Below, one piece after another: positions 15,265-32,538 of a stretch of 62,688 nucleotides of DNA. The notes under the pieces are model-generated. The model was not told where the DNA came from and searched no databases. It saw nothing but the letters and a program-made list of their open reading frames with translations. This DNA is from Nitrospira sp. GTDB lineage: Bacteria; Nitrospirota; Nitrospiria; Nitrospirales; Nitrospiraceae. How positions within the stretch are numbered: position 1 is the stretch's first letter; every line of letters begins with the position of its first letter. The stretch spans positions 1-62,688 of the forward strand of contig JANNIV010000266.1 of the NCBI GenBank assembly GCA_031405355.1. Direction: 5' to 3'. Position numbers and translations under genes: made by a program.

Positions 15265-15443
15265 AATTCTAGATGACGCACGCGTACTTGGTAGGGAGTT
15301 TTTGATCGTGGGCAGGAACCCGACTCTGTGCGTGGCCCTGTCAGTCGTGATGTTGGCGGTACGGGAATCTGTTTCACAATAAGAGATGAAAGCCGGCGTG
15401 TGTCGCCGGAATGGCGGCAGCTTGTCAGTGAGGAGGTGAGAGC

Positions 15444-17288: not shown

Positions 17289-17309
17289 CTGAACGGGGGG
17301 AGAGAGACC

Positions 17310-17705
17310 ATGGAACAAGCAGCCACAAGGAAAGAGCTTCGTCAGTTTGGGCTATTGGTCGGCGCGGTCTTCACCGTGATCGGCTTCTGGCCGCTCGTCT
17401 TTCGGGGCGAGCCGTTCCGGCTCTGGGCGATCGGCCTCGGTGGGACCCTGATCCTGTTCGGCGCCATACTGCCCCAGGTCTTGGGGCCGATCCACAAAGG
17501 GTGGATGTGGGTCGGGCATATTCTTGGATGGATCAATACACGGATTCTGCTCAGTATCGTGTTTTATGGGATCGTGACGCCGATGGGCCTCATCTTTCGT
17601 CTTCTGGGGAAGAAATCGATGCGGCAGACATTTGCCGAATCGAGCACGACCTACAGAGTGGTTCGAGCTCCGCGACCCCATTCCCATATGAAATATCAAT
17701 TTTGA
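17310..17705 (+). CDS. SxtJ-like small membrane protein
   Basis: 131 aa with 3-4 TM segments (LRQFGLLVGAVFTVIGFWPL...). From memory, it sits immediately after the carbamoyltransferase in other loci in the same way. Confidence 0.65.
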   Translation: MEQAATRKELRQFGLLVGAVFTVIGFWPLVFRGEPFRLWAIGLGGTLILFGAILPQVLGPIHKGWMWVGHILGWINTRILLSIVFYGIVTPMGLIFRLLGKKSMRQTFAESSTTYRVVRAPRPHSHMKYQF

Positions 17706-17731
17706 GCCTAACCAGTGGAAGGAGGTGTGCC

Positions 17732-17884
17732 ATGGGCGAGTTTGTGATGGAACTCTGGGCTTTCATGAGGGAACGGAAGAAATTCTGGCTCCTTCCCATC
17801 GTTACGGTGTTGGTGCTGCTTGGCAGTCTGATAGTCCTGACGCAGGGTTCGGCTGTCGCGCCATTCATTTACACCCTGTTCTAA
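17732..17884 (+). CDS. DUF5989-like small membrane protein
   Basis: 50 aa: MGEFVMELWAFMRERKKFWLLPIVTVLVLLGSLIVLTQGSAVAPFIYTLF. GGAAGGAGG RBS lies 5 nt upstream. Only the tail of the 245-aa track ORF 17147..17884 is coding. Confidence 0.6.
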   Translation: MGEFVMELWAFMRERKKFWLLPIVTVLVLLGSLIVLTQGSAVAPFIYTLF

Positions 17885-18005
17885 CTCGATTGAGTTTGGG
17901 GGCGGGGTACAGTTCGGATCGCGCGCGTCTCGCTCACGAGGTGTCGCTGTCGATCAACAGGTAATGAATGGGAGTGAGTTGTTATTAAAACAAGGAGAGT
18001 GACTC

Positions 18006-18845
18006 ATGATCACCGACACTCATAAATCCAACGGAAAGATCCGGCACACACGCGATTATATGTGTGAGATCGGCGTGGTTGAACTCCCTCCGCTCACCAG
18101 CCCATTTGATCCAGGCTATGATCCGGTCACGCTGGAGAGTCACCTGGAGCAGAGCAGGCATTTGATCTCCTCGCTGAAAATTTCGATGGCCTGCTGGCAG
18201 GTTGCCAGCGAGATGGCGACACGCAAAAAGGTCGATGCGGCGCGGCGCCTCAATGTTCCCGTCTGCACGGGAGGGGGGCCATTCGAGATCGCTGTCTATT
18301 TCAAAAAACTTCCGGAGTTTCTCGACCTCTGCGCCGACATCGGTGTGACGGGGATCGAAGCAGGGGCGGGATTCATCGAGAATGTTCTGAACCCCCACGA
18401 AGTCGTGCGTCTCGCTTCCGAACGCGGGCTTACTGTCCAGTTCGAGATCGGCGAGAAGCATGGAGGAACGTTTACAGAGGATGTAGTGACGGAACTGGTC
18501 GACCAGGGAAAGCGCTGGCTCGATGCCGGGGCGGGCAAGATTGTGGTCGAAGGGCGTGAGAGCGCGCAAGACGTAGGCCTGTTTGACGGAAAAGGCAAGT
18601 TGAACGCGGGATTCGCGGAGCGGTTCGTCGAGGCCTACGGGATGGACCGGACAATCTTCGAGGCGCCGAACAAGCCAAGTCAATTTGCGCTGCTCAATCA
18701 TTTCGGCCCACGTGTGCATCTCAGTAACGTCCGGTTGGAAGAATTGCTGCGGGTGGAGATTTATCGCAGGGGATTGCACTCCGATGCGTTTCAGCAAATG
18801 ATCTTGCGGCCCAAGGGGCCTGCCCAAAACGGTCTATACGCGTAG
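18006..18845 (+). CDS. comA: (2R)-phospho-3-sulfolactate synthase (ComA family)
   Basis: VVEGRESAQDVGLFDGKGKL and TIFEAPNKPSQFALLNHFGPRVHLSNVRLEELLRVEIYRRGL align block for block with archaeal ComA as I recall it (IIEGRESGKGKGLFDKEGKV; VIFEAPQKSQQVAFILKFG..VNLANI...LETLRRGL). AAGGAGAG RBS. Confidence 0.85.
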   Translation: MITDTHKSNGKIRHTRDYMCEIGVVELPPLTSPFDPGYDPVTLESHLEQSRHLISSLKISMACWQVASEMATRKKVDAARRLNVPVCTGGGPFEIAVYFKKLPEFLDLCADIGVTGIEAGAGFIENVLNPHEVVRLASERGLTVQFEIGEKHGGTFTEDVVTELVDQGKRWLDAGAGKIVVEGRESAQDVGLFDGKGKLNAGFAERFVEAYGMDRTIFEAPNKPSQFALLNHFGPRVHLSNVRLEELLRVEIYRRGLHSDAFQQMILRPKGPAQNGLYA

Positions 18846-18919
18846 GAGGCTGCGGAAAAACGTGATTTATGAATAAAGCGTCAGTGAAATCTTACGTATG
18901 GCACTGATGTCACATTAAT

Positions 18920-19046
18920 CACAGAATGCTCAAAAAGGCCATCCAGCAAGGCCGCAGCGAGCGAAGGGGCGAGGCGTACGCTTCGGTACGTTGAGCCTCT
19001 GAGTGATGCGAGAACGCCGCTGGTGGACTTTTTCAGCATCTTGCTA
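18920..19046. mobile_element. MITE-like element, family 2, copy 1 (between comA and comB)
   Basis: Terminal inverted repeats CAGAATGCTCAAAAAGGCC / GGACTTTTTCAGCATCTTGCTA. Core is CAAGGCCGCAGCGAGCGAAGGGGCGAGGCGTAC-GCTTCG-GTACGTTGAGCC. Homologous copies lie at 44493-44795, 53727-53829 and 62519-62646. Confidence 0.8.
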
Positions 19047-19055
19047 GGAGGGAGC

Positions 19056-19793
19056 ATGAGAGGCTCAGTGGTCATCGACTCATTTCCGGAGAGCGCAGAA
19101 CGGTATCGGGAAGGGTATGCCATTGTCGTGGTGGACGTGATTCGAGCGACGACCACGGCGACTACGGCGGTCAATCTTGGACGGAGTGTGTTTCCGGCAC
19201 AGACGACCGATGAGGCGTTCCGTATTGCGTCGAGGCTCAAGGAGCCGCTCCTTGTAGGAGAATTGGGCGGGAATATGCCTGTGGGCTTCGATGTGAACAA
19301 TAGTCCGGCGAAGATTGCAGAACGAACCGACGTGCATCGACCGATGGTGTTAGTGTCCTCGTCCGGAACGCAATTGCTGTTGAATGCGGTCGGAGCCGAG
19401 GCTGTGTATGCCGCATGCTTTAGGAATTTCTCCGCCGTCGCCCGTCATCTGTCCGGTAGGCATCGTCGGATTGCCGTTCTCGGGGCTGGGACTCGAAACC
19501 AGTTCCGCCGAGAGGACCAGATGGGATGCGCCTGGGTTGCCGAACAGCTGGTGGCATCGGGCTATATTCCTGAGACCGAGGCGACGAGCGAGTATATCTC
19601 CCACTGGAGCGGGAAGAGCCCGGAGGAAGTTCGCGGAGGGAGAAGCGCGGCATATCTGAGGCAGTCGGGCCAGGAAGTGGATTTGGAGTTCGTGCTCAGC
19701 CACATCGACGATCTCGACACAGTGCCTTCCTTGGTCAATGGTGGATTGGAGCCTGCCGCAGCGCGCAGAGAGGCGCTCCGTTTGTCGATCTAA
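19056..19793 (+). CDS. comB: 2-phosphosulfolactate phosphatase (ComB family)
   Basis: VVVDVIRATTTATTAV is the ComB signature. ATG 19056 is preceded by GGAGGGAG. The track start at 19023 lies inside the MITE and is probably spurious. Confidence 0.8.
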   Translation: MRGSVVIDSFPESAERYREGYAIVVVDVIRATTTATTAVNLGRSVFPAQTTDEAFRIASRLKEPLLVGELGGNMPVGFDVNNSPAKIAERTDVHRPMVLVSSSGTQLLLNAVGAEAVYAACFRNFSAVARHLSGRHRRIAVLGAGTRNQFRREDQMGCAWVAEQLVASGYIPETEATSEYISHWSGKSPEEVRGGRSAAYLRQSGQEVDLEFVLSHIDDLDTVPSLVNGGLEPAAARREALRLSI

Positions 19794-19849
19794 TCGGGAC
19801 GTTCCTAATCCAAAAGGCGGAAACCACGTTGCGAATTCAGAATACATCG

Positions 19850-21040
19850 ATGCCGGTGGTGGTCGTAAACTGCAAACTTGGGGCGCTGGCCATCATGCGC
19901 AGTCTGGGAGAGCAGGGTGTCCCGGTCTACGGAGTCGATGCCGACCCCCGATCTCCAGGGATGCTCTCACGGTACTGCAAGCAGAGCTTCCTCTATGGAT
20001 ACGATGAAGCCCACCCAGAGCGGTTTCTGGAAGAGCTCCTGAGGGTCGGGAAGGAAGTCGGACGCACATCGATCTTGATCCCGACATCGGATGAGACCGC
20101 TGTCTTTGTCACCGAGTATGCCGAGCCGTTGAGCCGATGGTTTATCTTCCCTGCTAACGCCCCGAGTTTGATGCGGGAGCTGATCAGCAAGAAAGGGATG
20201 TATGATCTGGTTGCCCGGCACGGGGTTCCTACCCCCTTCACTCTGTTCCCTGAACGGCTGGAAGATGTGGAGGCCTCTCTGCACAGAGTCAAGTTTCCGC
20301 TGATGTTAAAAGGGATTTTCGGAAACCGTCTGCAAGCGCGCGGCAAGAAGAAGATGGTCGTAGTCCATTCGGAGAAAGAGTTGCTTGCACAGTATAAGGA
20401 GATGGAGGAGCCGGGCTTTCCCAACCTGATGCTTCAAGAGTATATCCCCGGGGGAGATGACCAAATCTTCATGTTCAACGGGTACTTCAATGGAACTTCC
20501 GATTGCCCGATCGGTCTCACTGGATACAAAGTCAGGCAGTTTCCGATCCACGTCGGCTGTACCTCGCTCGGAGAGTGCCGTTGGAATGAGGCGGTCGGCA
20601 AAGTGACGATGCAGTTCATGAAAGCGATTCATTACCGAGGAGTCCTCGATATCGGGTATCGATTCGATCCCCGCGACGGCCAGTACAAGGTGCTCGACAT
20701 CAACCCGCGGGTCGGTCAGGCGTTCCGTCTTTTCGTCGCCGAGGACGACATGGATGTGGTCAAAGCGCTCTATCTCGATCTTACAGGCCAGAAGCAGCCG
20801 ATGATCATTCCAAGGGAGGGTCGTCGCTGGATGATCGAGGATTTCGATCTGATCTCCTCGAACGATTATTATCAGGAGGGGACCTTATCCTTTGGGGACT
20901 GGTTCCGGTCATTGAAGGGTTTGGAGGAGGCGGCCTGGTTTAACAGGAAAGACTTAAGGCCATTTTTCGTGATGGCCTGGGGGTTGCTCAAGCGGATGCG
21001 TTCATGGTCAGGCAGAACGATCGCTCGCAGGGCATCATGA
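19850..21040 (+). CDS. ATP-grasp carboxylate-amine ligase (COG3919-like)
   Basis: MPVVVVNCKLGALAIMRSLGEQGVPVYGVD is the pre-ATP-grasp domain. FPLMLKG..., MLQEYIPGGDD and VLDINPR are ATP-grasp blocks. Confidence 0.8.
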   Translation: MPVVVVNCKLGALAIMRSLGEQGVPVYGVDADPRSPGMLSRYCKQSFLYGYDEAHPERFLEELLRVGKEVGRTSILIPTSDETAVFVTEYAEPLSRWFIFPANAPSLMRELISKKGMYDLVARHGVPTPFTLFPERLEDVEASLHRVKFPLMLKGIFGNRLQARGKKKMVVVHSEKELLAQYKEMEEPGFPNLMLQEYIPGGDDQIFMFNGYFNGTSDCPIGLTGYKVRQFPIHVGCTSLGECRWNEAVGKVTMQFMKAIHYRGVLDIGYRFDPRDGQYKVLDINPRVGQAFRLFVAEDDMDVVKALYLDLTGQKQPMIIPREGRRWMIEDFDLISSNDYYQEGTLSFGDWFRSLKGLEEAAWFNRKDLRPFFVMAWGLLKRMRSWSGRTIARRAS

Positions 21041-22122
21041 ATAATTCGATCTTAGAGTTCGAAAGATTGGTCTTGCGATTTCGGAAGCTGTGGGAGGAGA
21101 AGCGGAACACGTCGAGCCAGGTGTACTTCGAGCACAGGGTTTCTGAGTATCGAGAGATGTGGGGTGCTATTGCCCATCATCTTGGAGGAACGTTTCATGT
21201 GCTCGCCGAAGACATTTGGGAACTGGATCTTGGCGATCAGGCGATCCGAATCAACAATCATCAGTTAGAGCTCGACAATCCTGTTACGCTGGCTTTGGCA
21301 GGGAAGAAGCCCCTTGTTCATCTCCTATTGAAGCGGCAGGGAATTGCCGTTCCAGACTACATTGTGTTCCAACGAACTAATCTCACTGTAGCCTATCATT
21401 TTCTGGACCGATATCCGAATGGCTGTGTGGTAAAGCCTGCAGACGGCTATGGAGGGAAAGGGGTCACAACCCATATCCAGACAAGGCCTGAATGCCGGAA
21501 GGCCATCATTTTGGCGTCATTGTATAGCAATGAACTATTGATGGAGCCGCAAATTCCAGGGGAGTCTTACCGGATACTCGTCATCGAAGGAAAGGTGGCC
21601 AATATAGTCCGACGGAAGGGGCTTTCCCTTGCGGGGGATGGTAAAAGAACGGTGATAGATCTGATCACGTCGGAAAACAATCGAAGGTGCGAACAACGAA
21701 GAGAGGCGCTGGCCAATGATCGCGACAGCCGGTTCCATCTCAAACACTATGGGCTTTCACTTGAGTCGATCCCTGAGGACGGGTTCAGCTTTATGATTAA
21801 GAGTGTCGATGAAGCCTCAAAACAAACGGTCGAGAATCGTACGGTCTATAACGAGGATGTAACAGACTTGGTATGTGATTCGATAAAAGGCGATGCGGAA
21901 TCAGCAGCGAAGATTATTCGATCCGACTTCCTCGGGGTTGATGTGATTACGACCGATCCCTCTTTGCCGCTTAAAGAAAGCGGCGGTGTCATCAATGAGG
22001 TGAATACGACACCGGCTCTTCATCATCATTATGACGTGAGTAAAGAGCCGTATCCAATGGTCGGCCTGACAGCAGTGGCCGCTCTCTTGAGGAAACAGTG
22101 TGTGAGTACTGGAGCTCGGTGA
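21037..22122 (+). CDS. ATP-grasp ligase (cyanophycin-synthetase N-domain / RimK-like)
   Basis: ATGA overlap with the previous gene. LLKRQGIAVPDY...CVVKPADGYGGKGV...YRILVIEGKV...INEVNTTPAL are ATP-grasp blocks. Confidence 0.7.
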   Translation: MNNSILEFERLVLRFRKLWEEKRNTSSQVYFEHRVSEYREMWGAIAHHLGGTFHVLAEDIWELDLGDQAIRINNHQLELDNPVTLALAGKKPLVHLLLKRQGIAVPDYIVFQRTNLTVAYHFLDRYPNGCVVKPADGYGGKGVTTHIQTRPECRKAIILASLYSNELLMEPQIPGESYRILVIEGKVANIVRRKGLSLAGDGKRTVIDLITSENNRRCEQRREALANDRDSRFHLKHYGLSLESIPEDGFSFMIKSVDEASKQTVENRTVYNEDVTDLVCDSIKGDAESAAKIIRSDFLGVDVITTDPSLPLKESGGVINEVNTTPALHHHYDVSKEPYPMVGLTAVAALLRKQCVSTGAR

Positions 22123-22204
22123 TTCGAGAAGATCGATTCCAGTGTGAGGATGACGCTCGTTACTCCCCTTTCGTGTCGACCACTCTTCGATCCGATCAGA
22201 AAAA

Positions 22205-23158
22205 ATGCAGAAAGAAAGAGTCGTCGCTATAGACCTGCTGAGAGTGATCGCTGTTTCCATGGTCATTCTCTCTCATGCGCTCATCACGCTCAGCTCATCT
22301 TGGCCAGGACCGGGTCAGGCCCACTTCGGACTCTTTCCCTTCTATTGGAATACGTGGGGGGAAATTGGCGTCACAATATTCTTGGTCATCAGCGGATTTG
22401 GACTTGGCTACACATATCGGGGGCAGCGGGTAGACTTGGCGCCCTTTGTCCTGAGAAGAGTCATAAGAATTTACCCGGTTTACTATTTTAGTTTGCTCTT
22501 TGCACTTGCCATCCACATCGGGATTGCAATACGAAGCAGCCTCCTTCACGACAGCCCGTTTAGCGTACTCCCAGGATTCGGATGGATGGATTTCATGTTA
22601 GCCCTCACCGGGCTTAACGCGTTTGCTGGAAAGTGGGGTGGCCCTCTCGTTTGGTCGAGCTGGTTTATCGGGCTGATCATGACGATGTATCTTTTCTATC
22701 CGCTTATCGCTCAAGGGCTGAAACGGTCTCCGTGGTTATGCTTGGGCCTGCTTTTCTGCATCAGCTATATTTCGAGAATTGTGGTTGCAGATTCAGAGAT
22801 ATTGTCCGGTAATCAGATGCATTGGTTCCCCCTCAACAGGGTATTTGAGTTTGGTGTTGGGGTTGCACTCGAGCAATCGATCCCACAAAGTGTGTTCGCC
22901 AGTACAAATGCAGGTTTACGGAATCTCGGATTTTTACCGTTCTGGGGCGATCTTTCCTTCCCGTTGTTCCTCATTCATGACCCCTTGCGTCAAGCTATGA
23001 CATGGGAACCTCGAACGCCTCTTTCCTCGCTGTTAGGGGTTGTTGTTTTTATCGCGGCCTCCGTTCTATTTAGTGTCGCGGCCTTGAAATTCAACGAACG
23101 CATGAAGGTTCTAATTGAGGGAAGATATCCTGCTCTCTCGAAATGCGTGATCGGTTAG
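22205..23158 (+). CDS. Membrane O-acyltransferase (acyltransferase-3 family)
   Basis: 317 aa, multi-TM. N-terminal RVVAIDLLRVIAVSMVILSHA is typical of the family. Confidence 0.8.
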   Translation: MQKERVVAIDLLRVIAVSMVILSHALITLSSSWPGPGQAHFGLFPFYWNTWGEIGVTIFLVISGFGLGYTYRGQRVDLAPFVLRRVIRIYPVYYFSLLFALAIHIGIAIRSSLLHDSPFSVLPGFGWMDFMLALTGLNAFAGKWGGPLVWSSWFIGLIMTMYLFYPLIAQGLKRSPWLCLGLLFCISYISRIVVADSEILSGNQMHWFPLNRVFEFGVGVALEQSIPQSVFASTNAGLRNLGFLPFWGDLSFPLFLIHDPLRQAMTWEPRTPLSSLLGVVVFIAASVLFSVAALKFNERMKVLIEGRYPALSKCVIG

Positions 23159-23292
23159 ATTGTCGTGGCGCTGTGTATGAGGAAGAGCTCGATACGCTCG
23201 AAGCAGTAGGCTGATACACGCGGGCATGGTCGTAACGCTGCTCAGGTGGGTTGCGCGGAAAACTTTGGGCTGAATGGCATAGAACGGGAGTC

Positions 23293-24444
23293 ATGATGGC
23301 GAGTGATCGTACGGCATACCGACTTGTGGCGATGGGCGATGTCATGCTGGATCGGCAGGTCGGAAAACATTTCAAAGAAAATCCCCAGGATTTTCAATTC
23401 GGCGAGCTTCAGACGGTTCTCCGAGACGACGATTTAATTTTTCTTAACCTCGAAAATCCCGTTGGAACAAAAGGCTCACCGAACGCAATTCAAGATCCTA
23501 ATGTTACGTTTCGTTGTCACCCTGAGAGCCTTCAAATACTCAAGAACCTGGGCACTGTGGTTGTGTCGCTGGGGAACAATCACATGCTTGACTATGGGGA
23601 AGGCACGCTCGCTGAAACATTGGCGCATTTGGATGCCGCAGGGATTAAACATGTGGGAGCAGGGCGGGATTATGAAGAAGCTAACCGCCCGCTGGTCATG
23701 GAGTTTAAAGGCAAGAAGATTGCTTTTCTGTCCCATGTTTTTATCTATTCTGCCAGCACGAGACGGGCAAGAAGCAATAGGGCCGGTGTTTCAGACTACC
23801 GGATAGGTAAGATCCTGTCGAAGGTTTCAGCGTTAAAGGGGGCCGGGTATCAGGTCATCGTTTCGCTGCATTGGGGCATTGAATATTGCTTCTATCCGCT
23901 GCCCTATCAAAGAGAACAGGCCAGAGCCATGATCGATCATGGGGCTTCACTGATTCTTGGACATGGGCCTCACTACCCTCAAGGGATCGAGAGATACAAG
24001 CACGGTGAGATCGTCTATAGCCTAGGCAACTTTATTTTCGATGAACCGCATCGATTCTCGAATCGGAGTTTCATTTATGGCGTTGAGATTACCGAAGCTG
24101 ATGATCTGGTAAACCGAATGGTGTGCCCAGTCCAACTCGTGCATCATGTTCCTTCTCTGATGAGGGGGAAAGAAGCGGAGCGATTTCAACGGTTTATTCT
24201 TCGCTTAGAAAATGTGTATAAGGGGAAGTCCGATCTGTTCTGGAAGCGGGTTAATAATATTTACTTTCAAGACATCATCAATCGTATTGTGCGAATGAGA
24301 TCCCTCAAATTTGTCTTCTTGCCACCGCTGTCGTTCTACCTTGGTGTCGGCATTCGGAATTATCTTGCGAAGGTGTCAGTCAAAAATATCGCTTCGACCC
24401 TGCAAATGATTTTCAAGCGTCATATATTTAGAACGGCCGGTTGA
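23293..24444 (+). CDS. CapA/PGA_cap-family metallophosphatase-like protein
   Basis: LVAMGDVMLDR...IFLNLENPV...VVSLGNNHMLDYG...HWGIEY...GHGPH motif series of the CapA (poly-gamma-glutamate capsule) family. Confidence 0.8.
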   Translation: MMASDRTAYRLVAMGDVMLDRQVGKHFKENPQDFQFGELQTVLRDDDLIFLNLENPVGTKGSPNAIQDPNVTFRCHPESLQILKNLGTVVVSLGNNHMLDYGEGTLAETLAHLDAAGIKHVGAGRDYEEANRPLVMEFKGKKIAFLSHVFIYSASTRRARSNRAGVSDYRIGKILSKVSALKGAGYQVIVSLHWGIEYCFYPLPYQREQARAMIDHGASLILGHGPHYPQGIERYKHGEIVYSLGNFIFDEPHRFSNRSFIYGVEITEADDLVNRMVCPVQLVHHVPSLMRGKEAERFQRFILRLENVYKGKSDLFWKRVNNIYFQDIINRIVRMRSLKFVFLPPLSFYLGVGIRNYLAKVSVKNIASTLQMIFKRHIFRTAG

Positions 24445-24506
24445 GCCGATGGTCTGTGGAACTGGTTGCCGATAGAAAGCCGATTATTTTGATTCAGTCA
24501 TCCGAT

Positions 24507-25886
24507 ATGGCCAAGAAGATTCTCCTCATCTCCTATCATTTTCCACCCAGTGCCGAAGTGGGCGGGCTGCGTGCTGCCAACTTTGTTCGGCAACTGCCGC
24601 GGTTTGGTTGGGAGCCTTTTGTCTTGACCTTGAAGGACGATTATCTGGAAAAGAAGGATGACGAGAAGCTGAAGTACGTCGGTTCAGTGAAGATTTCTAA
24701 GGCTGGACGGATGCCCACGCTTTCGCCAATCTATTTGGGACTCAAACGAATAGTCCTGCGTCTGTTCAGACCCTCGAATGCGACGGCAAGTATATCGGGA
24801 AGCGGTTCTCGGCCAGCCATGCCGCCCGGTCGCATGGCAGAGACCCTATCCCGGAAACTTCGGCGGTACATCCTGTCCTTTTTGTCGCTTCCGGACGAGC
24901 AGCGAAACTGGATGTGGCCCGCCGTGTTCCAAGCCGTTCGTCTAATTCGGCGAGAAAAGATCGATTGCATCCTGACCTCCAGTCCGCCCTATTCAGTTCA
25001 CCTGGTCGGATGGGTGCTGAAGTGCCTGACAGGCGTCCGGTGGATCGCCGACTATCGTGACCCATGGATGACGGGCGGTTCCAAGAGGATGTACGTCACC
25101 TGCGCGGCATCGTTGAAAATCGAGCGATGGCTGGAATGGAAGATGGTTCAGAAAGCTGATTTGGTTGTTGCGAATACCGAGATGTTATGTGAGGCCTTTA
25201 AAAAGGCTTACGGATCCAGGTTGACAGACCGGTTTATCTGTATCACGAATGGATTCGATGGGGAGTTTTTCTCGAGTTTCGGTCATGTGGAGAAAGATAA
25301 GGTGTTCACGATCATCTATACCGGAACGCTGTATTTCGGAAGGACACCAGAGCCGGTGTTCAAAGCCGTTCATGAGCTGATCGAAGAAGGCCGGATAGAT
25401 GCCCATGCGATCCGGATCAGGTTGGTCGGCCAATGTCAGTTCATCGACGGCCGGCCGATCGATGGAATGGTTCAGGAATATCGGCTCGGCGGGATTGTGG
25501 AGGTACTGGAGTCGGTGTCCTATAGCCGAGCGATCGAGATGGTTAAACAGAGCCATCTCGCTCTCCTGTTGGCGCCCAACCAACCCTATCAGATTCCAGC
25601 GAAGGCCTACGACTATATGGGAACCGGAACCACGATTCTTGCCATGGCCGAGGCAGGGGCGACACGCGATCTAGTTCATTCCACCAAGGCCGGCGCCGCC
25701 TTCAGCACTTCAGATACGGCTGGGATCAAGGAGTTCATTGTCAGGTCCTTGAATCCGGCCGGCGAATTCGCCCAGACCGGGAAGAACGGTGCGCTTGCTG
25801 AGTATGAGATTCAGTCCATTGCCCGCTGTCTTGCGCAACAGCTCGATCGTCTCAGCGGTTTAGAGGCCGAGAGTCATGCAGCTTAA
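24507..25886 (+). CDS. Glycosyltransferase, GT-B fold (GT4-like)
   Basis: MAKKILLISYHFPPSAEVGG N-terminus. The C-terminal half shows the Rossmann-like pattern. Confidence 0.75.
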   Translation: MAKKILLISYHFPPSAEVGGLRAANFVRQLPRFGWEPFVLTLKDDYLEKKDDEKLKYVGSVKISKAGRMPTLSPIYLGLKRIVLRLFRPSNATASISGSGSRPAMPPGRMAETLSRKLRRYILSFLSLPDEQRNWMWPAVFQAVRLIRREKIDCILTSSPPYSVHLVGWVLKCLTGVRWIADYRDPWMTGGSKRMYVTCAASLKIERWLEWKMVQKADLVVANTEMLCEAFKKAYGSRLTDRFICITNGFDGEFFSSFGHVEKDKVFTIIYTGTLYFGRTPEPVFKAVHELIEEGRIDAHAIRIRLVGQCQFIDGRPIDGMVQEYRLGGIVEVLESVSYSRAIEMVKQSHLALLLAPNQPYQIPAKAYDYMGTGTTILAMAEAGATRDLVHSTKAGAAFSTSDTAGIKEFIVRSLNPAGEFAQTGKNGALAEYEIQSIARCLAQQLDRLSGLEAESHAA

Positions 25887-26901
25887 AGTTGATAGATCGC
25901 CCGGGGCGGAATGGGTTCAATTGATCGAGCGATTCGATGGGAACATTTACCACAGCCAGGAATGGGCCGAGACCTGGCGATCGGACTATGCCGAGCCTCT
26001 GTATTTCCGCGGGCTGGACGAGCAAGGCCGCTGTATTGGGATCGCGTTGGCAAACGAACGACACTCGTCCAGGCCGGTCATTGGGCGTTTTCTCAGACGC
26101 CTCGACTTTGAAACTTTTCCGGCCGTTCAGGCAAACGATCCAGACTTGGCTCGTGCGATGATGGATCGGATAGTCGAGTTCGCAAGGGCAGGGGGATATC
26201 GCGGTCTCACGCTGCAGTCCCATTATTCCGGTGTGCCGCTCTCAAATCTGGACCATCTTGGGCTTGTTGCCACGCCGAGGATTGAATTTATTGTGGATCT
26301 CACGAGTTCCGACGAAGAACGATGGAAGCAGCTCTCGACTCATCATCAGCGGAAGATCAAGAAGGCGGGCAAGCACGGATTGGTGTTCGAGGAGGCCTGT
26401 TCGGTCGAGGCCATGCAGGAGTTACGGCGACTACAGATCGGTTCGCGCGATCGGAGGGTAGAGCGCGGAGAGTATTTTGGTCTTCAAGGCGAAGCCTATT
26501 ATGAACAGATGGGCCGGCGATACTTCGAGAGAAATCTCGGACGTCTATTTTTGATGCGCTACGAAGGTCGGCCTGTTTCGGCCGCGTTCATCTCGATGTA
26601 CTCTGGCCGGGCCTTATACGTGCTCGGTGGCAGCGAGTCGAAGGGATTCGAACTGGACGCGCCGGCATTGCTGTTTTGGAAGGTGCTCAGCCGTTGCGTG
26701 GAACTTGGATGCAGGGAGTTCAATTTCGGAGGTGTCCCAGCTTCGGCCCAGGATTCACAATCGCTCGCGCACGGACTATACCGATTCAAGGACGGTTTCG
26801 GGGGACGCCAAGCTGCAAGGGTGAGTGGGACAGCGGAAAATCTCCAATCGGGCCTCACCGCGCTAGCCGGTACTGTGAAACGTTTACGGCTTTCTGCATG
26901 A
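25876..26901 (+). CDS. FemAB-like / GNAT-fold aminoacyl (peptidyl) transferase, exosortase-locus type
   Basis: 341 aa. Has SQEWAETW..., HHQRKIKKAGKHGL, LFLMRYEGRPVSAAFISMYSGRALYVLGGS and FNFGG blocks typical of FemAB/FemX-like proteins. Confidence 0.7.
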   Translation: MQLKVDRSPGAEWVQLIERFDGNIYHSQEWAETWRSDYAEPLYFRGLDEQGRCIGIALANERHSSRPVIGRFLRRLDFETFPAVQANDPDLARAMMDRIVEFARAGGYRGLTLQSHYSGVPLSNLDHLGLVATPRIEFIVDLTSSDEERWKQLSTHHQRKIKKAGKHGLVFEEACSVEAMQELRRLQIGSRDRRVERGEYFGLQGEAYYEQMGRRYFERNLGRLFLMRYEGRPVSAAFISMYSGRALYVLGGSESKGFELDAPALLFWKVLSRCVELGCREFNFGGVPASAQDSQSLAHGLYRFKDGFGGRQAARVSGTAENLQSGLTALAGTVKRLRLSA

Positions 26902-27056
26902 ACGGATTTACACGAAGCCAGACGTTTCCCTGACAGCGAATCACACACACATACCTGGCGCAATTTCAATCATCGCAGTTCGTGCCGTCTCCTAACTGTG
27001 CCCACACATCTGATCGCGCGGCGCTAAAAACAGCTTGGTGCGCGACTAAGGGGAAA

Positions 27057-28283
27057 ATGGATGTATTAGTAACAGGAGCAGATCAGCGACAAGGCCTCGC
27101 GGTCATTCGCTCTCTCGGTCGGCGCGGCCTCTCAGTTGTGGCGGCCGGACCGGCTATGGACAGCCTGGGATTTTGTTCCCGGTATGCGGCAGCCCGGTGG
27201 GTCTATCCCTCGCCGTTTGAGCAGCCGGAAGCGTTCGTGGACTCGATCTGCGAGGCGGCTAAGCGGTTTCGTGTTCGCCTCGTGATTCCGGTCGTCGAGT
27301 CCACAGTTGCGGTTCTCAACGAACATCGGGACGTGATCGAGGCGATCGCGCCGCTTGCTATGGCCTCCCGCGAGGCGGTGGCGCTGGCCCTCGACAAACG
27401 AGGTCAGTATCTGCTGGCCCAGCAGCATGAGATTCCGATTCCCAAAACGATGGCTCCACGCTCAATGCAGGAAGTAGATGCGCGCATTGGGGGGCTTCAC
27501 TTTCCAGTCGTCGTTAAACCGAATCAGAAACCGCTTGGCACATCAGGATCATCCTATGACTTCAAGGTCACGTTCGCGAACGACGAGGACTCGCTACGGA
27601 AGCTCCTCGGCATCTACTTTCGGCATTCGGTCGTGCCGATTGTGCAGGAGTTCTGTGTGGGGCATGGGATAGGGTTCGGCGTGCTCATGCATGGCGGCCA
27701 GCCGCTGGCCTGCTATCAGTATCACCGCGGTCGGGAGCTTATGCCGACTGGGGGGGTGCCGGTGCGGTACGAAAGCATGCCGATCTGGCCGAAGGTGCAG
27801 GAGTACTCGATCCGCTTTCTGCAAGCCATGGGATGGGAAGGCGTTGCACAGGTCGAGTGGAAGGCTGTGCCGGGCACCCAGGATGTTGTCTTGATGGAGG
27901 TCAACGGCCGTTTCTGGGCCTCCCTGCCCGGTTCACTGCACGCGGGGATGGACTTTCCATTTTGGCTGTATGAAAGCCGACTGGGGAGGCCCGTTCAGCA
28001 CAATCAGGCCTATCGCCTCAAGATTGCCAGCCAGTATCTGCATGCCGATCTCAAGCGGCTCGAACTGGTGCTCCGCGACGATTTTCCTATCAGCAGCGTG
28101 CCATTGCCGCCGAGGTGGAGAGAGTGTGTCGATTTCCTGCTCGATGGTCTTCGCTGGCGGGTGAAAGGGGACATTTGGTCCTGGGACGATTGGTCTCCGG
28201 GTCTTCAGGAAGCTCGAAAGATCTTCATGTATTTCTGGAATCGCGCAAATAAGAGGGCGGTCGGGCCAAAGGCAGAAGGGTAA
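27057..28283 (+). CDS. ATP-grasp ligase (third paralog)
   Basis: MDVLVTGADQRQGLAVIRSLGRRG, FPVVVKP, VQEF, EWK......LMEVNGRFW. AAGGGGA RBS. Confidence 0.8.
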   Translation: MDVLVTGADQRQGLAVIRSLGRRGLSVVAAGPAMDSLGFCSRYAAARWVYPSPFEQPEAFVDSICEAAKRFRVRLVIPVVESTVAVLNEHRDVIEAIAPLAMASREAVALALDKRGQYLLAQQHEIPIPKTMAPRSMQEVDARIGGLHFPVVVKPNQKPLGTSGSSYDFKVTFANDEDSLRKLLGIYFRHSVVPIVQEFCVGHGIGFGVLMHGGQPLACYQYHRGRELMPTGGVPVRYESMPIWPKVQEYSIRFLQAMGWEGVAQVEWKAVPGTQDVVLMEVNGRFWASLPGSLHAGMDFPFWLYESRLGRPVQHNQAYRLKIASQYLHADLKRLELVLRDDFPISSVPLPPRWRECVDFLLDGLRWRVKGDIWSWDDWSPGLQEARKIFMYFWNRANKRAVGPKAEG

Positions 28284-28293
28284 GGTTCATAAA

Positions 28294-29697
28294 ATGTACG
28301 CACAGTTTGTCAAACATGTCAGCTTGCCCTTGTATCACTGGTGGCATGGGTCTGACTTGATGAGGAACATTCGGACCTTCGAGGATTCTCAATGGTTTCC
28401 TGAGGAGCGTCTGAGGGCCATGCAATGGGAGCGACTGAGCCGACTTCTGGAACATGCATACCTGCACGTCCCGTACTACCAGGAAAAATTCAAAGAGATC
28501 GGAGCCGAGCCGCAGGACTTCCGCTCATTGGAAGACTTCGCCAAATTTCCAATCATCACAAAGCGAATGCTTCAGGAGAGAGTTGCAGACCTCATCGCCA
28601 CGAATGTCCCGTCCGGCGAACTGGTCAAGGGAGTCACGAGCGGCTCTTCAGGTCTACCAACCGTCCACTATCGAGACCGTGCGTGCAACCGGATCAGGAC
28701 CGCTGCAGGAAAGCGACTGAACCGGGTAGCCGGTTATGACTTCGGTCTGAAGCTTTTCTCATTCTGGCGCGAGAGCCCGTTTGTCTTTGACGGGATTCAG
28801 GCCAAGCCGGCAACAGGTCCGCAAGAAGAACTTTCTCCTGGCCTGGCAAGATTTAAGCGGACGATGCACGATCGTTTCGGCGTAGAAAACCAAGTCTTGA
28901 GGATCGATCCTACCTTGCTGAGTGAAACGGAGCTGGCCCGAATGTATAACCAGCTCAAAGCGTTCAAGCCGGACATCATTATCTCCTATGTCAGCGCGCT
29001 CTACATACTGGCTCAATATCTGGAAGCCAATTCCCTCAAGGGAATCACACCCCGTTCCGTGATCGTGTCCTCGGAGGCACTCTATCCCCATCAACGCGTG
29101 ACAATGGAGCGAGCCTTCGGATGCCCGGTTTACAATCGCTATGGCCTCAGCGAGACGGGGATTGTCGCCATTGAGTGCCCTGCGCATGAGGGGCTTCATC
29201 TTAATCAGGAGATTCTCCACATGGAGCATGTCCCGGACGGATTCGGCACTACTCAATTGGTCGTGACGGATTTGATCAACAGAGGCATGCCGTTACTTCG
29301 GTATGAGACCGGGGATACGGGTCGACTGATTCAGGAGCGCTGCCTATGTGGCCGAGGACTCAGCCGTATCGGTCACCTCAGCGGACGGGTGATCGATATG
29401 CTTCCGACAAGGTTGGGCGGCCACGTGAATGGCCAGCTGTTTGCGACATTTCATTGGATCGAAGGGGTGAAGCAGTATCAGGTCGTTCAGGAGAAGATCA
29501 ACGCCTTTAAGCTTCGGATCGTTCCTACTTCTTCTTTCACGGAGAGCAACCTTGCTCCGATGATCGAGACTATCAGGGAAAGGTTCGGGCGAGATACATC
29601 GATTGGGCTCGACTACGTTGAAAACATTCCCTTCACCCGAGGAGGGAAATACAAGCTTGTCGTTTCCGAAGTCAAGATGCAGGAGGTGTCACGATGA
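28294..29697 (+). CDS. Adenylate-forming enzyme, CapK / phenylacetate-CoA-ligase (F390 synthetase) family
   Basis: 467 aa. VTSGSSGLPT is the AMP-binding P-loop. Also YNRYGLSETG and LRYETGD. Confidence 0.8.
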   Translation: MYAQFVKHVSLPLYHWWHGSDLMRNIRTFEDSQWFPEERLRAMQWERLSRLLEHAYLHVPYYQEKFKEIGAEPQDFRSLEDFAKFPIITKRMLQERVADLIATNVPSGELVKGVTSGSSGLPTVHYRDRACNRIRTAAGKRLNRVAGYDFGLKLFSFWRESPFVFDGIQAKPATGPQEELSPGLARFKRTMHDRFGVENQVLRIDPTLLSETELARMYNQLKAFKPDIIISYVSALYILAQYLEANSLKGITPRSVIVSSEALYPHQRVTMERAFGCPVYNRYGLSETGIVAIECPAHEGLHLNQEILHMEHVPDGFGTTQLVVTDLINRGMPLLRYETGDTGRLIQERCLCGRGLSRIGHLSGRVIDMLPTRLGGHVNGQLFATFHWIEGVKQYQVVQEKINAFKLRIVPTSSFTESNLAPMIETIRERFGRDTSIGLDYVENIPFTRGGKYKLVVSEVKMQEVSR

Positions 29698-30902
29698 TTA
29701 CGGCTATCGCGCAACGAGCAAAGTATTACTCCTCCTTCATCGATCACGAATTTATCAAAATCTATCTTGCCGGATCGCGTTCTGAAAAGCACGATCCTAT
29801 GAAGCATATCGAGGCCGGTGTCGAGTGGATTTGCCATGCGCAGGATGCATTCAATGGTGGAGGCGTGGCCCGCAGCTATGCACTCATTTATCATCCGTTT
29901 TTTAAACGGAGAGGCTGGTTTGCTCCATATCCCGAAACCACGGGGTATATCATTCCCACGCTCTTCGATTATGCCCGACTGGTCAATCGGCAGGAGTTTG
30001 CCGATCGGGCCGTCCGGATGGCCGACTGGGAATGCCGGGTTCAATTGGACAACGGGGCGGTGCAGGGCGGCATGATTGATCAGCCGCCCTCTCCCGCGAT
30101 CTTCAACACCGGCCAGGTAATTTTCGGGTGGATTCGGGCGTTCCAGGAGACCGCGCAATCGACCTATCTGGTATCTGCGGTCAAGGCGGGAAAGTTCCTG
30201 GTTTCCCAGCAGGATCCGGACGGCGCTTGGAGAAAATCGCTCTCCGACTTCACCATGAACTCTCGAATGAGCTCCTATACGTACAATACGAGGACTGCAT
30301 GGGGTCTGATGGAGCTGGCGCTTGTAACGGGTGACGAAGAGTTTGAAGAAGCGGCGATTCGAAACGTTGAGTTTGCGTTGGGGCAGCAGCTTGAGAACGG
30401 CTGGTTCAGGTCAAACTGTCTGAATGATCCGGCACAGCCGTTGCTTCATACGATCGCGTACTGCATCAGGGGCATCATGGAAATCGGTGCGCTCATGAAG
30501 AACCAAGAGTACCTTGCGAGGGCTCGGAGGGCTGCCGATGCCGTGCTGGCAAGGCAACGGCCGGACGGCAGCCTGGCCGGCCGGTTCGATGAGCAATGGG
30601 AGCCTGCTGTTGCCTGGCGGTGCCTGACAGGAGAGGCCCAGATGGCAGGCATCTGGGGGCGGTTGTACCAGTTAACCGGTCAACCGGAATATCTCGAGGG
30701 GATGAGACGAACCAACGCCGCGCTTAGAACAATTCAGTTTTTGCATACCGATCATCCGGGCCTGTATGGAGGCATCAGCGGGTCTCACCCGATCCAGGGT
30801 GGGTACGGGCGATTCGAAATCCTCAATTGGGCCGTCAAGTTTTTCTTGGATGCGCAGATGCTTGAACGGTCGTTGGCCGCTAGCGGTGATCATGGCGCTT
30901 GA
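29694..30902 (+). CDS. (alpha/alpha)-toroid protein of unknown function (terpene-cyclase/prenyltransferase-like or glycoside-hydrolase-like fold)
   Basis: 402 aa. Shows repeated helix-pair pattern with QxxDGxW-like motifs (QQDPDGAWRK, QQLENGWF, RQRPDGSL). ATGA overlap with the CapK-like gene. Confidence 0.5.
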   Translation: MITAIAQRAKYYSSFIDHEFIKIYLAGSRSEKHDPMKHIEAGVEWICHAQDAFNGGGVARSYALIYHPFFKRRGWFAPYPETTGYIIPTLFDYARLVNRQEFADRAVRMADWECRVQLDNGAVQGGMIDQPPSPAIFNTGQVIFGWIRAFQETAQSTYLVSAVKAGKFLVSQQDPDGAWRKSLSDFTMNSRMSSYTYNTRTAWGLMELALVTGDEEFEEAAIRNVEFALGQQLENGWFRSNCLNDPAQPLLHTIAYCIRGIMEIGALMKNQEYLARARRAADAVLARQRPDGSLAGRFDEQWEPAVAWRCLTGEAQMAGIWGRLYQLTGQPEYLEGMRRTNAALRTIQFLHTDHPGLYGGISGSHPIQGGYGRFEILNWAVKFFLDAQMLERSLAASGDHGA

Positions 30903-32406
30903 AGAAAGCACATTTCGAACCAAGGTTTTCAGAGGATTCCTCTGGCTCAGCGCCGGTACGTTCATCGCCCAATTCATTTCTTGGATTTCGACGATTTTCC
31001 TCATTCGGCTGCTGTCGCCTGCCGATTATGGCCTGATGGCCATGACGGCCGGTTTTGTCGCGTTGCTGACGAGTATCAGTGAACTCGGGATCGGCGCGGC
31101 CCTCATTCAGGCGAAAGAGTTGTCGGAGCGGGAGATCCGGCAGATCTTTACTTGGGTGTTGATCACCGGCCTGATCGGGGTGACTGTCTCGTATGCCTCG
31201 GCGCCGTGGGTGGCCGGATTCTACGACACGCCGGAACTGGCCACGATGATCCGAGTCCTATCTTGTAACATGTTCCTGGCGATGGCCTATGTGGTTCCGC
31301 AGGCCCTGTTCGTTAGGGAGATGAATTTCAAGATTAAGGCCCAGATTGAAGTGTTTGCCAATTCTGCCGCCACCCTACTGACGCTGGATCTTGCTCTGAA
31401 TGGACTAGGTGTATGGTCGTTGATTGTCGGGCAGATGGCGCTGTTCGGAATCAAGGCGCTTGCGTTCAATGTTGCGCGCCCCCGTTGGATCGCACCGCTG
31501 TTTGACCTTCGGGGATCAGGGAGGCTTCTGCGGTACGGTCTGAATGAGACTGGTTCACGGCTACTCTATTATGTGTATACCCAGTCGGACCATATCATCG
31601 TAGGAAAGTTCCTGGGAGGTGTGGTGTTGGGGGGCTACGCTGTGGCTCAATCGTTGGCCGTAATTCCAATGGAGAAGGTGCTGCCGATTATTTCTCAAAT
31701 ATCGTTTGCATCCTATGCCAGGATCCAGGATGACAGGGAACAGATCAGAACAAACATTCTCAGGACCGTCCGTACCATTGCGTTTGCCGGTGTCCCGATT
31801 TTTCTAGGTATGGCGGCTGTGGCGCCGCTGGGTCTTCCGCCGATCCTGGGTCCGAAGTGGGAATCGTTCATTGTTCCCTTCCAGCTGCTTTGCCTGACTC
31901 TTCCGCTCAGGGCCTTGAGTCCGATTCTTTCTCCGGCTGTCTTCGCGATCAATCGTCCCACGGTCAATCTGATCAATATGCTGATCGCCGCAGTCGCAAT
32001 GGGGTCGGCATTTCTCGTCGGGGTTCAGTACGGTGTCATTGGCGTGTGCATAGCCTGGCTGGGGGCCTATCCGGTCGTGTTTGGGATCACGACAATTATA
32101 AACCTTCAGGTGCTTGGCATTCCGGTCCGCGACTACCTAGGCGAAATTCGTTTCCCGTTTTTCGCCGGCGCCATCATGCTCGTTTCACTCTGGCTATTCG
32201 GAAAGATGGTCGTTACTCCGTGGCCGCTCTATTCCCTGGTTCTACAGACCCTGTTGGGGGCCGTGGTGTATCTCTCCCTGACGATGATTTTCGACAGGGA
32301 GCATTTTGCCGAGATCCGACAGCATCTGCGTCGACTCACGGCCCGTCGCACTCATTCGAACGTATCGATCTGGCCGTCAAGTTCCTCCTCGATACGAAGA
32401 GAGTAG
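30892..32406 (+). CDS. Wzx-type polysaccharide flippase (MOP superfamily), copy 1
   Basis: About 12-14 TM segments. N-terminus FRGFLWLSAGTFIAQFISWISTIFLIRLLSPADYGLMAM is typical of polysaccharide biosynthesis (PST) flippases. Confidence 0.8.
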   Translation: MALEESTFRTKVFRGFLWLSAGTFIAQFISWISTIFLIRLLSPADYGLMAMTAGFVALLTSISELGIGAALIQAKELSEREIRQIFTWVLITGLIGVTVSYASAPWVAGFYDTPELATMIRVLSCNMFLAMAYVVPQALFVREMNFKIKAQIEVFANSAATLLTLDLALNGLGVWSLIVGQMALFGIKALAFNVARPRWIAPLFDLRGSGRLLRYGLNETGSRLLYYVYTQSDHIIVGKFLGGVVLGGYAVAQSLAVIPMEKVLPIISQISFASYARIQDDREQIRTNILRTVRTIAFAGVPIFLGMAAVAPLGLPPILGPKWESFIVPFQLLCLTLPLRALSPILSPAVFAINRPTVNLINMLIAAVAMGSAFLVGVQYGVIGVCIAWLGAYPVVFGITTIINLQVLGIPVRDYLGEIRFPFFAGAIMLVSLWLFGKMVVTPWPLYSLVLQTLLGAVVYLSLTMIFDREHFAEIRQHLRRLTARRTHSNVSIWPSSSSSIRRE

Positions 32407-32471
32407 AACGATCGTTTATCGTAGCCGCCCGGCATCAGTCCGCGTTGGCGGTATTTTTCCGAGGATCAGCG

Positions 32472-32506
32472 GCTCCCAGCTGTACGCCGGTGAGGAGCTT
32501 TTTTTT
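32472..32506 (+). terminator. Rho-independent terminator candidate between the two flippase genes
   Basis: GCTCC (32472-76) ... GGAGC (32494-98) stem followed by eight T (32499-32506). The stem is short and the loop long. Confidence 0.4.
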
Positions 32507-32538
32507 ACGCGTACCGGCTGTTTGTATCGGTGGGTCTC

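Follow-up and report, generated by a model that had tools for sequence, protein, structure and literature searches.

Our results suggest that a run of genes in contig JANNIV010000266.1 of Nitrospira sp. (assembly GCA_031405355.1), analysed here as one stretch of 62,688 nucleotides (nt; the window), is the core of a cytoplasmic tailoring module that would ligate sulfolactate, together with other amide-linked groups, onto the repeat unit of an exopolysaccharide (EPS), a reading that we hold with moderate confidence. The genes are nine consecutive plus-strand open reading frames (ORFs), here named g1 to g9, and two genes just upstream which encode homologues of ComA and ComB (Table 1). The analysis shows the gene content of the module, the folds and catalytic motifs of its products, its linkage across phyla and the exchange of one cassette.

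A preliminary description of this DNA had let the block begin at 19850, with g1, and had read the nine genes as the makers of a peptide-like side chain. All nine were indeed present, with each family call verified by profile or structure matches. The left boundary was too tight, as ComA and ComB are part of the same conserved unit; ComA is its true first gene, and the functional unit spans at least from ComA (18006) to g9 (30902). These two genes say most about the chemistry and had been left out, although a hydroxy- or sulfo-acid had been hinted at. The genes were also said to be mostly overlapping: g1/g2, g5/g6 and g8/g9 do overlap (three of the eight junctions), and the others are separated by gaps of 10-155 nt. 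The claimed ATGA start/stop overlap was found at 21037-21040, where an alternative start of g2 creates it, and again at 29694-29697. The idea of a decoration beyond acetyl and pyruvyl groups stood, given the dense set of carboxylate-activating and acyl-transferring enzymes inside the EPS locus, and so did the statement that the gene combination belongs to no characterised pathway, as literature searches were empty and the NCBI homologues are annotated 'hypothetical protein'. The block is uncharacterised and recurs in several bacterial phyla; because of this conservation, the arrangement is not a chance adjacency.

Table 1. Features of the module and its conserved neighbours, in window positions (two values before the hyphen are alternative starts)
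Feature	Position	Strand	Evidence
ComA-family (2R)-phospho-3-sulfolactate synthase homologue	18006-18845	+	Pfam ComA PF02679 9.6e-46, 156.6 bits vs 25.2
ComB-family 2-phosphosulfolactate phosphatase homologue	19023-19793	+	Pfam 2-ph_phosp 5.6e-39, 134 bits vs 26.4
g1, ATP-grasp ligase, unannotated conserved family	19829/19850-21040	+	AlphaFold2 (AF2) + Foldseek
g2, ATP-grasp ligase, like cyanophycin-synthetase G domain and GshB	21004/21037-22122	+	NCBIfam 5e-43 partial
g3, membrane Acyl_transf_3 O-acyltransferase	22205-23158	+	Pfam 3.5e-20; ~5 hydrophobic segments
g4, soluble PGA_cap (calcineurin-fold) protein	23251/23296 (probable)-24444	+	PF09587 1.4e-68, 231.6 bits vs 27
Swapped cassette g2-g3-g4	21031-24506		no nucleotide homology to RSF3
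g5, GT4-type glycosyltransferase	24441/24456 (probable)-25886	+	Pfam Glyco_transf_4 N-domain 1.7e-11
g6, FemAB/Acetyltransf_6 GNAT-fold acyl or aminoacyl transferase	25876-26901	+	Pfam
g7, third ATP-grasp ligase	26982/27057-28283	+	NCBIfam PRK12767-like 1.4e-16
g8, PaaK/CapK-type adenylate-forming enzyme	28294-29697	+	NCBIfam DVU_1553 3.4e-43, PaaK 1.3e-29 (PaaK/F390/DVU_1553 type)
g9, cytoplasmic (alpha/alpha)6-barrel carbohydrate-active protein	29694-30902	+	AF2 + Foldseek
Two tandem Polysacc_synt_3 (Wzx-type) flippases	30766-32406 and 32530-33990	+	Pfam 4e-69, 6.5e-71
AsnB-type glutamine amidotransferase	35276-37216	+	Pfam Asn_synthase 2.3e-79; TIGR03108-like, below cut-off

ComA, ComB and the ATP-grasp ligases across phyla

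ComA condenses sulfite with phosphoenolpyruvate (PEP) to (2R)-phosphosulfolactate, which ComB dephosphorylates to 3-sulfolactate, and we know of no other chemistry for the two families (PF02679 and PF04029) than phosphosulfolactate synthesis and hydrolysis. The ComA homologue of the window aligned over its full length with M. jannaschii ComA (1QWG; 1e-27, residues 30-263, ~30% identity); its K151 falls on Lys137 of that enzyme, and the EGRES and FEAP motifs are kept. B. subtilis YitD (PDB 1U83) is a further homologue. As occurs in the coenzyme M pathway of methanogens, the same two families stand here in the same order and are presumed to make 3-sulfolactate from PEP and sulfite. Unlike that pathway, the window lacks ComC and ComDE, the genes belong to an EPS operon, and ligases come next. 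In the absence of ComC/ComDE the pathway therefore ends at sulfolactate, and coenzyme M biosynthesis was ruled out, as no ComC, ComD or ComE family was found in the window.

The gene that follows, g1, escaped the profile libraries, since CPSase_L_D2 reached 19.1 bits in Pfam against a cut-off of 19.8 and the NCBIfam matches were likewise sub-threshold. Its AF2 model, built from 24 homologues with a predicted local distance difference test (pLDDT) score of 82, matched more than 500 ATP-grasp chains in Foldseek at E<=1e-3 (template-modelling (TM) score ~0.6, probability 1.0), among them PurK, 2PN1 and the L-amino-acid ligases BL00235, YwfE and RizA. Sequence searches of the PDB with g1, as with g9, gave nothing useful. 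K154, QEY, D267 and D283-x-N285 are invariant across the 24 sequences, whose alignment has a mean column identity of 70% across phyla. The third ligase, g7, is a distant paralogue of g1 (23% identity) in which K154, E267 and E281-x-N283 are invariant across 22 sequences, and g2 keeps the motifs KPADG, EPQIPG, VDV and NEVN. The preliminary description had named a loss of catalytic residues from the ATP-grasp proteins as a finding that would speak against it; all three keep the lysine and the E/D-x-N magnesium motifs. All three are predicted to be ATP-dependent carboxylate-amine or carboxylate-hydroxyl ligases.

The g1 family is large: a word-index search returned 3045 relatives, and the full search, counted in 50%-identity clusters, 7668 at E<=0.001, 3938 at E<=1e-10 and 721 at E<=1e-30. 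Every named NCBI record of the family is annotated 'hypothetical protein', and when a cultured carrier of the module was sought, the named homologues were all hypothetical proteins of metagenome-assembled genomes (MAGs). Domains of this family are found fused to class-I methyltransferases, to a second ATP-grasp and to a flavin monooxygenase-like domain (P0381-P0503). One protein of 1589 amino acids (aa), P0417, is a GT4-ATPgrasp-ATPgrasp-GT4 fusion with g1-family domains, and in P0387 a g1-like domain is joined to an Acetyltransf_6 GNAT domain.

A metagenome search with the g1 profile yielded more than 535 confirmed loci, 80 of which were fetched and examined; the profile search of genome contigs was made with g7 and gave 14 loci, so that the wider g1 census is one of metagenome contigs. 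Of the 54 loci with enough upstream DNA, 49 have ComB immediately before g1, and ComA is present in 39 of 42 g1 loci. Among 27 diverse loci of at least 8 kb, all of which have g1, ComB was found in 26, ComA in 25 and g2 in 18. The other window genes were found in at most seven of these loci, besides 13 low-identity matches to the g7 query (median 22%), which are probably cross-matches to g1. From this linkage to ComA/ComB, we propose that g1 is a sulfolactate ligase.

Longer stretches of the block are also kept. The distant loci with a g7 of 53-59% identity, namely L007/L014 (an uncultured Desulfatitalea MAG), L008 and L010, repeat the order ComA-ComB-ATP-grasp-acyltransferase-GT4-FemAB-ATP-grasp-CapK, followed by a flippase and AsnB. 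ComA, ComB, g1, g2, the GT4, the FemAB, g7 and the CapK occur together in the Nitrospira MAGs RSF3, CG24E and L.E.N.18, and the Desulfatitalea MAG and three unassigned metagenome contigs (L008, L010 and L035) have the same eight-gene set, to which the Nitrospira loci, L010 and L035 add the toroid gene (g9). In the Zixibacteria genome CP070674 (L108), the core ComA-ComB-g1-LarA-like-g2 is intact and the rest is partial and rearranged: beside the core stand a weak GT4-like gene (31%), a flippase, two g1-like paralogues, a toroid gene (40%), a Fem2-like FemAB, a g7-like ATP-grasp (30%), DegT, a deacetylase and Wzy, and CapK was not found in this locus. The sub-module of FemAB, g7, CapK and toroid also travels without ComA/ComB, as in L024, L025 and L027. 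In a Pfam census of 117 g1 neighbours, methyltransferases, GT4, Lar_N, PGA_cap, MBOAT and flippases were the leading families.

Note that in distant loci (L109, GCA_040961345.1, 4431-21269; and L045, 5796-11578) ComA-ComB-g1 is accompanied by a B12-binding radical SAM enzyme and a CheR-type methyltransferase; a MaoC-dehydratase/short-chain dehydrogenase (SDR) fusion, two acyl carrier proteins (ACPs), ketoacyl synthase III (KSIII), an acyltransferase and FkbH occur there too. The sulfolactate module may supply acylated or lipid-linked products as well.

The exchanged cassette and the downstream enzymes

Compared with RSF3 (L011/L028), the window had 85-93% nucleotide identity in the flanks of the g2-g3-g4 cassette and none over exactly the cassette itself, whose GC content is 0.492 versus 0.556 and 0.565 in the flanks. 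Between g1 and g5, the closest Nitrospira genomes instead have a LarA-family protein, another Acyl_transf_3 protein and a g2 of only 51% identity. The low-GC cassette g2-g3-g4 has replaced the LarA version in the window. In a neighbour-joining tree, the g2 sequences split by partner, and the window g2 falls inside the PGA_cap-linked clade, which comes from other lineages. Sister loci carry other AT3 or MBOAT proteins in place of g3.

What is exchanged for LarA is g4, which the preliminary description had taken for a CapA-like protein linked to poly-gamma-glutamate export. This link found no support: no CapB/PgsB or CapC/PgsC family was found among the scanned window ORFs, and a simple Kyte-Doolittle scan of g4 for a membrane anchor gave no 19-residue hydrophobic window above threshold. 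PgsA, by comparison, is anchored in the membrane at its N-terminus and has an extracytoplasmic domain. With the Bacillus CapBCA/PgsBCA system g4 shares the PGA_cap domain alone, and the window differs from that system in lacking CapC and the Mur-ligase-like CapB, in the undetected anchor of g4 and in its other genomic partners. Moreover, the sole PDB relative of g4 is the epimerase MslH (8GQ9, 1.9e-14), and g4 swaps with LarA; it is not a poly-gamma-glutamate component. As for g2, its closest families include GshB and N-acetylglutaminylglutamine synthetase (NCBIfam), and it also matched PDB 7WAC (1.5e-20) and the ligase domain of GshAB. Cyanophycin synthetase has N, G (ATP-grasp) and M (Mur-ligase-like) domains in ~870 aa; the 361-372 aa of g2 align to positions ~185-471 of the 871 in its model, with 147 bits versus 877. 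A poly-gamma-glutamate or cyanophycin-like polymer was ruled out by the lack of CapB/CapC, by the lack of the M and N domains in g2 and by the solubility of g4.

In MslH, a Ca(II)-dependent epimerase, inversion takes place at the C-alpha of a C-terminal residue while its carboxylate sits on the metal, and the enzyme uses the dyads His88/Asp91 and His295/Asp11 and the metal ligands Glu44, Asn87, His259 and His261 (PMC10406935). The GD, NLE, NNHMLD (NNHxxD) and GHGPH motifs of g4 align with Asp11, Glu44, Asn87-His88-Asp91 and His295 of MslH, and g4 scored 66 bits against the MslH model NF038314 (cut-off 700). We propose that g4 is a metal-dependent C-alpha epimerase or racemase. The LarA-like protein of RSF3 is closest to the malate racemase Mar2 (6D6Z, 1.4e-36), its best NCBIfam matches are the nickel-pincer nucleotide (NPN) malate racemase models (190 versus a cut-off of 500), and the catalytic His/His/Lys/His set aligns.

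PGA_cap (12 loci, including the window) and LarA-like proteins (15 loci) never occur together, and none of 16 fully covered loci holds both. Sulfolactate is the sulfonate analogue of malate, and the product of ComA is the (2R) isomer. Because of this mutual exclusion, the malate analogy and the (2R) configuration, g4 and the LarA-like protein appear as alternative stereo-inverters, which from the locus context we infer to act on sulfolactate or on a substrate or product of g2. LarA-type racemases such as Mar2 and the PGA_cap-family epimerase MslH (PMC10406935) both invert a stereocentre alpha to a carboxylate; the substrate here would be sulfolactate or a conjugate, and not malate or the C-terminus of a lasso peptide. 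A PGA_cap protein acting on a small hydroxy acid is without precedent.

Downstream of the cassette, g5 follows g2 or g4 in many loci (44-83% identity). The description of g6 as FemAB-like was right as to the domain (FemAB PF02388, 1.3e-17, 64.2 bits versus 24; Acetyltransf_6 PF13480, 1.6e-13, 51.5 bits versus 22); yet g6 is not the canonical FemAB of PEP-CTERM systems, as it scored 47.3 bits against TIGR03019, below the cut-off of 260.35, and is 21% identical to the paralogue at 38152-39219, which is the canonical one (383.4 bits). Its match to FemX in the PDB was marginal (5e-3). The adenylating enzyme g8 matched PaaK in the PDB (2Y27, 6e-22), is tagged PF27533 CapK_C in the metagenome index and holds all the adenylation motifs (TSGSSG at residue 115, YGLSETG, YETGD and GGKYK); it is not a phenylacetate-CoA ligase proper, because its score against the PaaK equivalog is 103 versus 646. 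The AF2 model of g9 (pLDDT 90, predicted TM score 0.91) has 12 long helices and matched, in Foldseek, GH88 (unsaturated glucuronyl hydrolases), AGE/cellobiose 2-epimerase and the sulfoquinovose isomerase YihS (TM 0.63-0.71, probability 1.0). We found 4289 relatives of g9; the contigs of some match in length those that carry g1 homologues and are probably the same ones. Two observations concern the g7 family: its ATP-grasps are fused in places to thymidylate-kinase-like or low-molecular-weight phosphatase domains (P0062, P0068, P0075, P0082), and in L026 (7585-8856) a 53%-identical g7 orthologue has a Mur ligase as its neighbour and lies close to genes for MreBCD and for type II secretion, outside any EPS locus.

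Proposed chemistry and its alternatives

The substrates and the order of steps given here are those that we infer from the genes. By family membership, ComA would join sulfite and PEP to (2R)-phosphosulfolactate and ComB would release 3-sulfolactate. Judging by gene linkage, g1 would activate the carboxylate as an acyl-phosphate and join sulfolactate to an amine or hydroxyl acceptor, and g2 would add, or extend with, an amino-acid-type partner. The C-alpha stereocentre beside the carboxylate, of sulfolactate or of the substrate or product of g2, would be inverted by g4, which would do the job of the malate-racemase-like LarA homologue in sister loci. The GT4 g5 may build the sugar that carries or accepts the group, and g6, g7 and g8, with the AsnB proteins, may introduce further amide-linked substituents, their likely targets being uronic-acid carboxylates and amino-sugar amines, which the TviB-like dehydrogenase, DegT and the deacetylases of the locus could supply. 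The toroid protein g9 would act on a sugar as an epimerase, isomerase or hydrolase, g3 would O-acylate the polymer, and the two flippases would export the unit. The expected product is a heteropolysaccharide with C-sulfonate (sulfolactyl) and amide decorations.

The best experimental precedent for such a module is Cj1438 of the C. jejuni HS:2 capsule, whose C-terminal ATP-grasp domain is described as an amidoligase acting on the C6 carboxylate of glucuronic acid (PMC11800379, citing Riegert et al. 2022). The likeness is that of an ATP-grasp in a polysaccharide locus which makes an amide from a sugar carboxylate and a small amine, and the domain forms one protein with a glycosyltransferase, much as GT4s and g1-family domains occur in fusions. 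Cj1438 differs in its amine (serinol or ethanolamine phosphate), in having neither ComA/ComB nor a sulfonate, in being one ligase against the three found here, and in its lack of FemAB, CapK or racemase partners.

Several results weigh against the sulfolactate module. Both Com proteins are below the equivalog cut-offs of NCBIfam (ComA, 147.2 bits versus 280 for TIGR03849; ComB, 100 versus 235 for the best model and 86 versus 175 for TIGR00298), so their substrates could differ. The fold neighbours of g1 are generic ATP-grasps which give no clue to the substrate. In the comparison of g4 with MslH, the His259/His261 stretch did not align, g4 reading HWGIE there. In 7 of the 16 fully covered loci neither a LarA-like nor a PGA_cap gene lies within 10 kb, so that the stereo-inversion step would be optional or encoded elsewhere. 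In some distant loci ComA-ComB-g1 stands beside ACP, KSIII, FkbH and MaoC-SDR genes, which means that the acceptor need not always be a polysaccharide. Among the scanned window ORFs, no family match to an exosortase (XrtA/EpsH) was found; the gene may lie outside the window. Finally, our literature searches found no paper in which sulfolactate is connected with LarA, with a glycan or with an ATP-grasp enzyme; nothing relevant was retrieved for sulfolactate with polysaccharide, Nitrospira, O-antigen or capsule, and a mention of comB context in GeCoViz proved unrelated. A sulfolactate-bearing glycan was not found in the searchable literature either; this silence speaks for the novelty of the module, not for its chemistry.

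The sub-threshold scores of ComA and ComB, the only ~30% identity to characterised ComA and the closeness of the LarA homologue to malate racemases would suit a divergent pair that uses another nucleophile or substrate, the module then installing another 2-hydroxy acid of malyl, lactyl or phosphono type. We judge this decidedly unlikely: the only chemistry generally known for PF02679/PF04029 is that given above, the catalytic lysine and its flanking motifs are kept, and ComA and ComB stay paired, as they do in the coenzyme M pathway. Closer to the preliminary description is a peptide or poly-amino-acid side chain, made by a tRNA-dependent FemAB, by ATP-grasp peptide bonds and by CapA-type handling, with no part for sulfolactate, which we regard as unlikely. 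The three competent ATP-grasps, one of them cyanophycin-synthetase/GshB-like, the FemAB-domain protein above the Pfam threshold with its adenylating partner, and the AsnB-type amidotransferases nearby all agree with it; however, CapB and CapC are missing, g4 is soluble and swaps with a 2-hydroxyacid racemase homologue, which would be senseless for poly-gamma-glutamate export, g6 matches FemX only marginally, and the strongest signal, the tie of ComA/ComB to g1 in ~90% of the loci, is left unexplained.

We also think it quite unlikely that the product of ComA-ComB-g1-g2 (plus the racemase or not) is a small soluble compound, for example a cofactor, a signal or an osmolyte of the sulfolactyl-amino-acid kind, which does not join the polymer, and that the genes merely share their place or their regulation with EPS genes. 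The triad is found with methyltransferases, beside ACP/KSIII/FkbH and once without recognisable neighbours (L045, L054, L109), and the nearest families of g2 make small peptides; yet across phyla it is embedded on one strand among genes for priming transferases, flippases, Wzy and GT4s, P0417 combines g1-family domains with GT4s, and in the window the genes are mid-operon, at the short gaps given above and with no terminator signal above chance. That no functional island exists, and that unrelated decoration genes have piled up in a hypervariable EPS locus, is hardly credible: EPS loci are generally mosaics and one 3.5-kb segment has demonstrably been exchanged, but Nitrospirota, Desulfobacterota and Zixibacteria share the gene set, though rearranged, with linkage near 90%.

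If the sulfolactate module is real, sulfolactate, with its stable C-S sulfonate, would be a new building block in bacterial glycan chemistry, and the orphan bacterial homologues of ComA/ComB outside coenzyme M producers would gain a purpose. Non-carbohydrate tailoring of EPS by ATP-dependent ligases is known; the new element is the plausible sulfolactate building block. Microbes would have another way of giving their slime a permanent negative charge, and there would be a genetic handle on the strongly anionic matrix polymers of nitrifying and sediment biofilms; the module occurs in sand-filter Nitrospira and in many metagenomes of soil and sediment. Testable functions would follow for g1 (721 clusters at E<=1e-30), for g9 (more than 4000 relatives), for standalone PGA_cap proteins and for an unassigned LarA subfamily, and LarA, a nickel-cofactor enzyme, and PGA_cap, a simple metal enzyme, would stand as a clean example of non-orthologous replacement. 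Only tentatively would we go further and see in ComA/ComB plus g1 a widespread, unrecognised route to sulfonated glycans, in which g1 would join sulfolactate to polysaccharide repeat units and so create a C-SO3- charge independent of sulfotransferases that use 3'-phosphoadenosine-5'-phosphosulfate (PAPS), with PGA_cap as a metal-dependent 2-hydroxyacid or acyl C-alpha racemase able to replace the nickel-pincer LarA, an activity that would be new to its family.

The surrounding exopolysaccharide locus

The module lies in a single long plus-strand polysaccharide cluster of ~55 kb within the window. The surrounding genes define it as an XrtA/PEP-CTERM-type, Wzx/Wzy-dependent EPS locus: PrsT (382.8 versus a cut-off of 312.2, NCBIfam), the XrtA-system deacetylase (351.4 versus 276.2), the TIGR03019 FemAB mentioned above, the TIGR03013 priming transferase (EpsB_2; 408.5 versus 393.35) and a PEP-CTERM motif protein (32.1 versus 20.7) all exceed their cut-offs. 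Further genes encode export proteins, chain-length/tyrosine-kinase proteins, Wzy, two flippases, two AsnB-type amidotransferases, a TviB-like UDP-N-acetylglucosamine (UDP-GlcNAc) 6-dehydrogenase, a DegT aminotransferase and deacetylases. With XrtA/PEP-CTERM (EpsH) loci the window has in common PrsT, the XrtA deacetylase, TIGR03019, TIGR03013, AsnB, the PEP-CTERM protein and the export and chain-length/tyrosine-kinase proteins, and a 'possible CapK protein' was co-profiled with the PEP-CTERM system (PMC1569441, Haft et al. 2006). The ComA-ComB-g1-g2-racemase block, g7 and g9 differ in not being described components of that system.

Identical copies of the proteins were found in metagenome contigs only, and the nearest genomes are Nitrospira MAGs, with a g7 identity of 95% in RSF3, 90% in L.E.N.18 and 79% in CG24E. 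A flippase lies downstream of the module in L007, L008, L010-L013 and L108; RSF3 holds both flippases of the window, and CG24E and L.E.N.18 only the second one. AsnB adjoins the module in L007, L008 and L010-L013, and the AsnB of Table 1 is a conserved neighbour that adds an amide-forming step. The nucleotide-sugar dehydrogenase at 5724-7025 is closest to TviB (UDP-GlcNAc C6 dehydrogenase; 467 bits versus a cut-off of 592). A TviB-like enzyme implies that the polymer contains 2-acetamido-uronic acids, whose carboxylates would be natural acceptors for the amide-forming enzymes.

Directly upstream of ComA, a trio at 15444-17884 encodes a carbamoyltransferase (NodU/SxtI-like), an SxtJ-family protein and a DUF5989 (SxtK-like) protein. 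The Nitrospira relatives keep all three genes, and L018, an unrelated deltaproteobacterial locus, has the first two of them, which suggests O-carbamoylation of the same polymer. Scans for promoter and terminator motifs (window positions 14000-33000) and for Rfam families gave nothing above chance. In distant loci a methyltransferase follows g1; the class-I methyltransferase at 44983-45780 was tested as its orthologue, and no matches were found. Two plus-strand ORFs, 41846-43210 (454 aa) and 51227-52159 (310 aa), had zero Pfam or NCBIfam matches. A NusG-like paralogue inside the EPS operon (14620-15264) may be an operon-specific antiterminator. Finally, the Wzy_C polymerase and GT4 genes are interspersed with four SGNH/GDSL-type paralogues (45893-46981, 47005-48255, 49734-50939 and 56979-58190), one of which has an AlgX-like region; this is an unusually high number of putative O-acyl handling enzymes.

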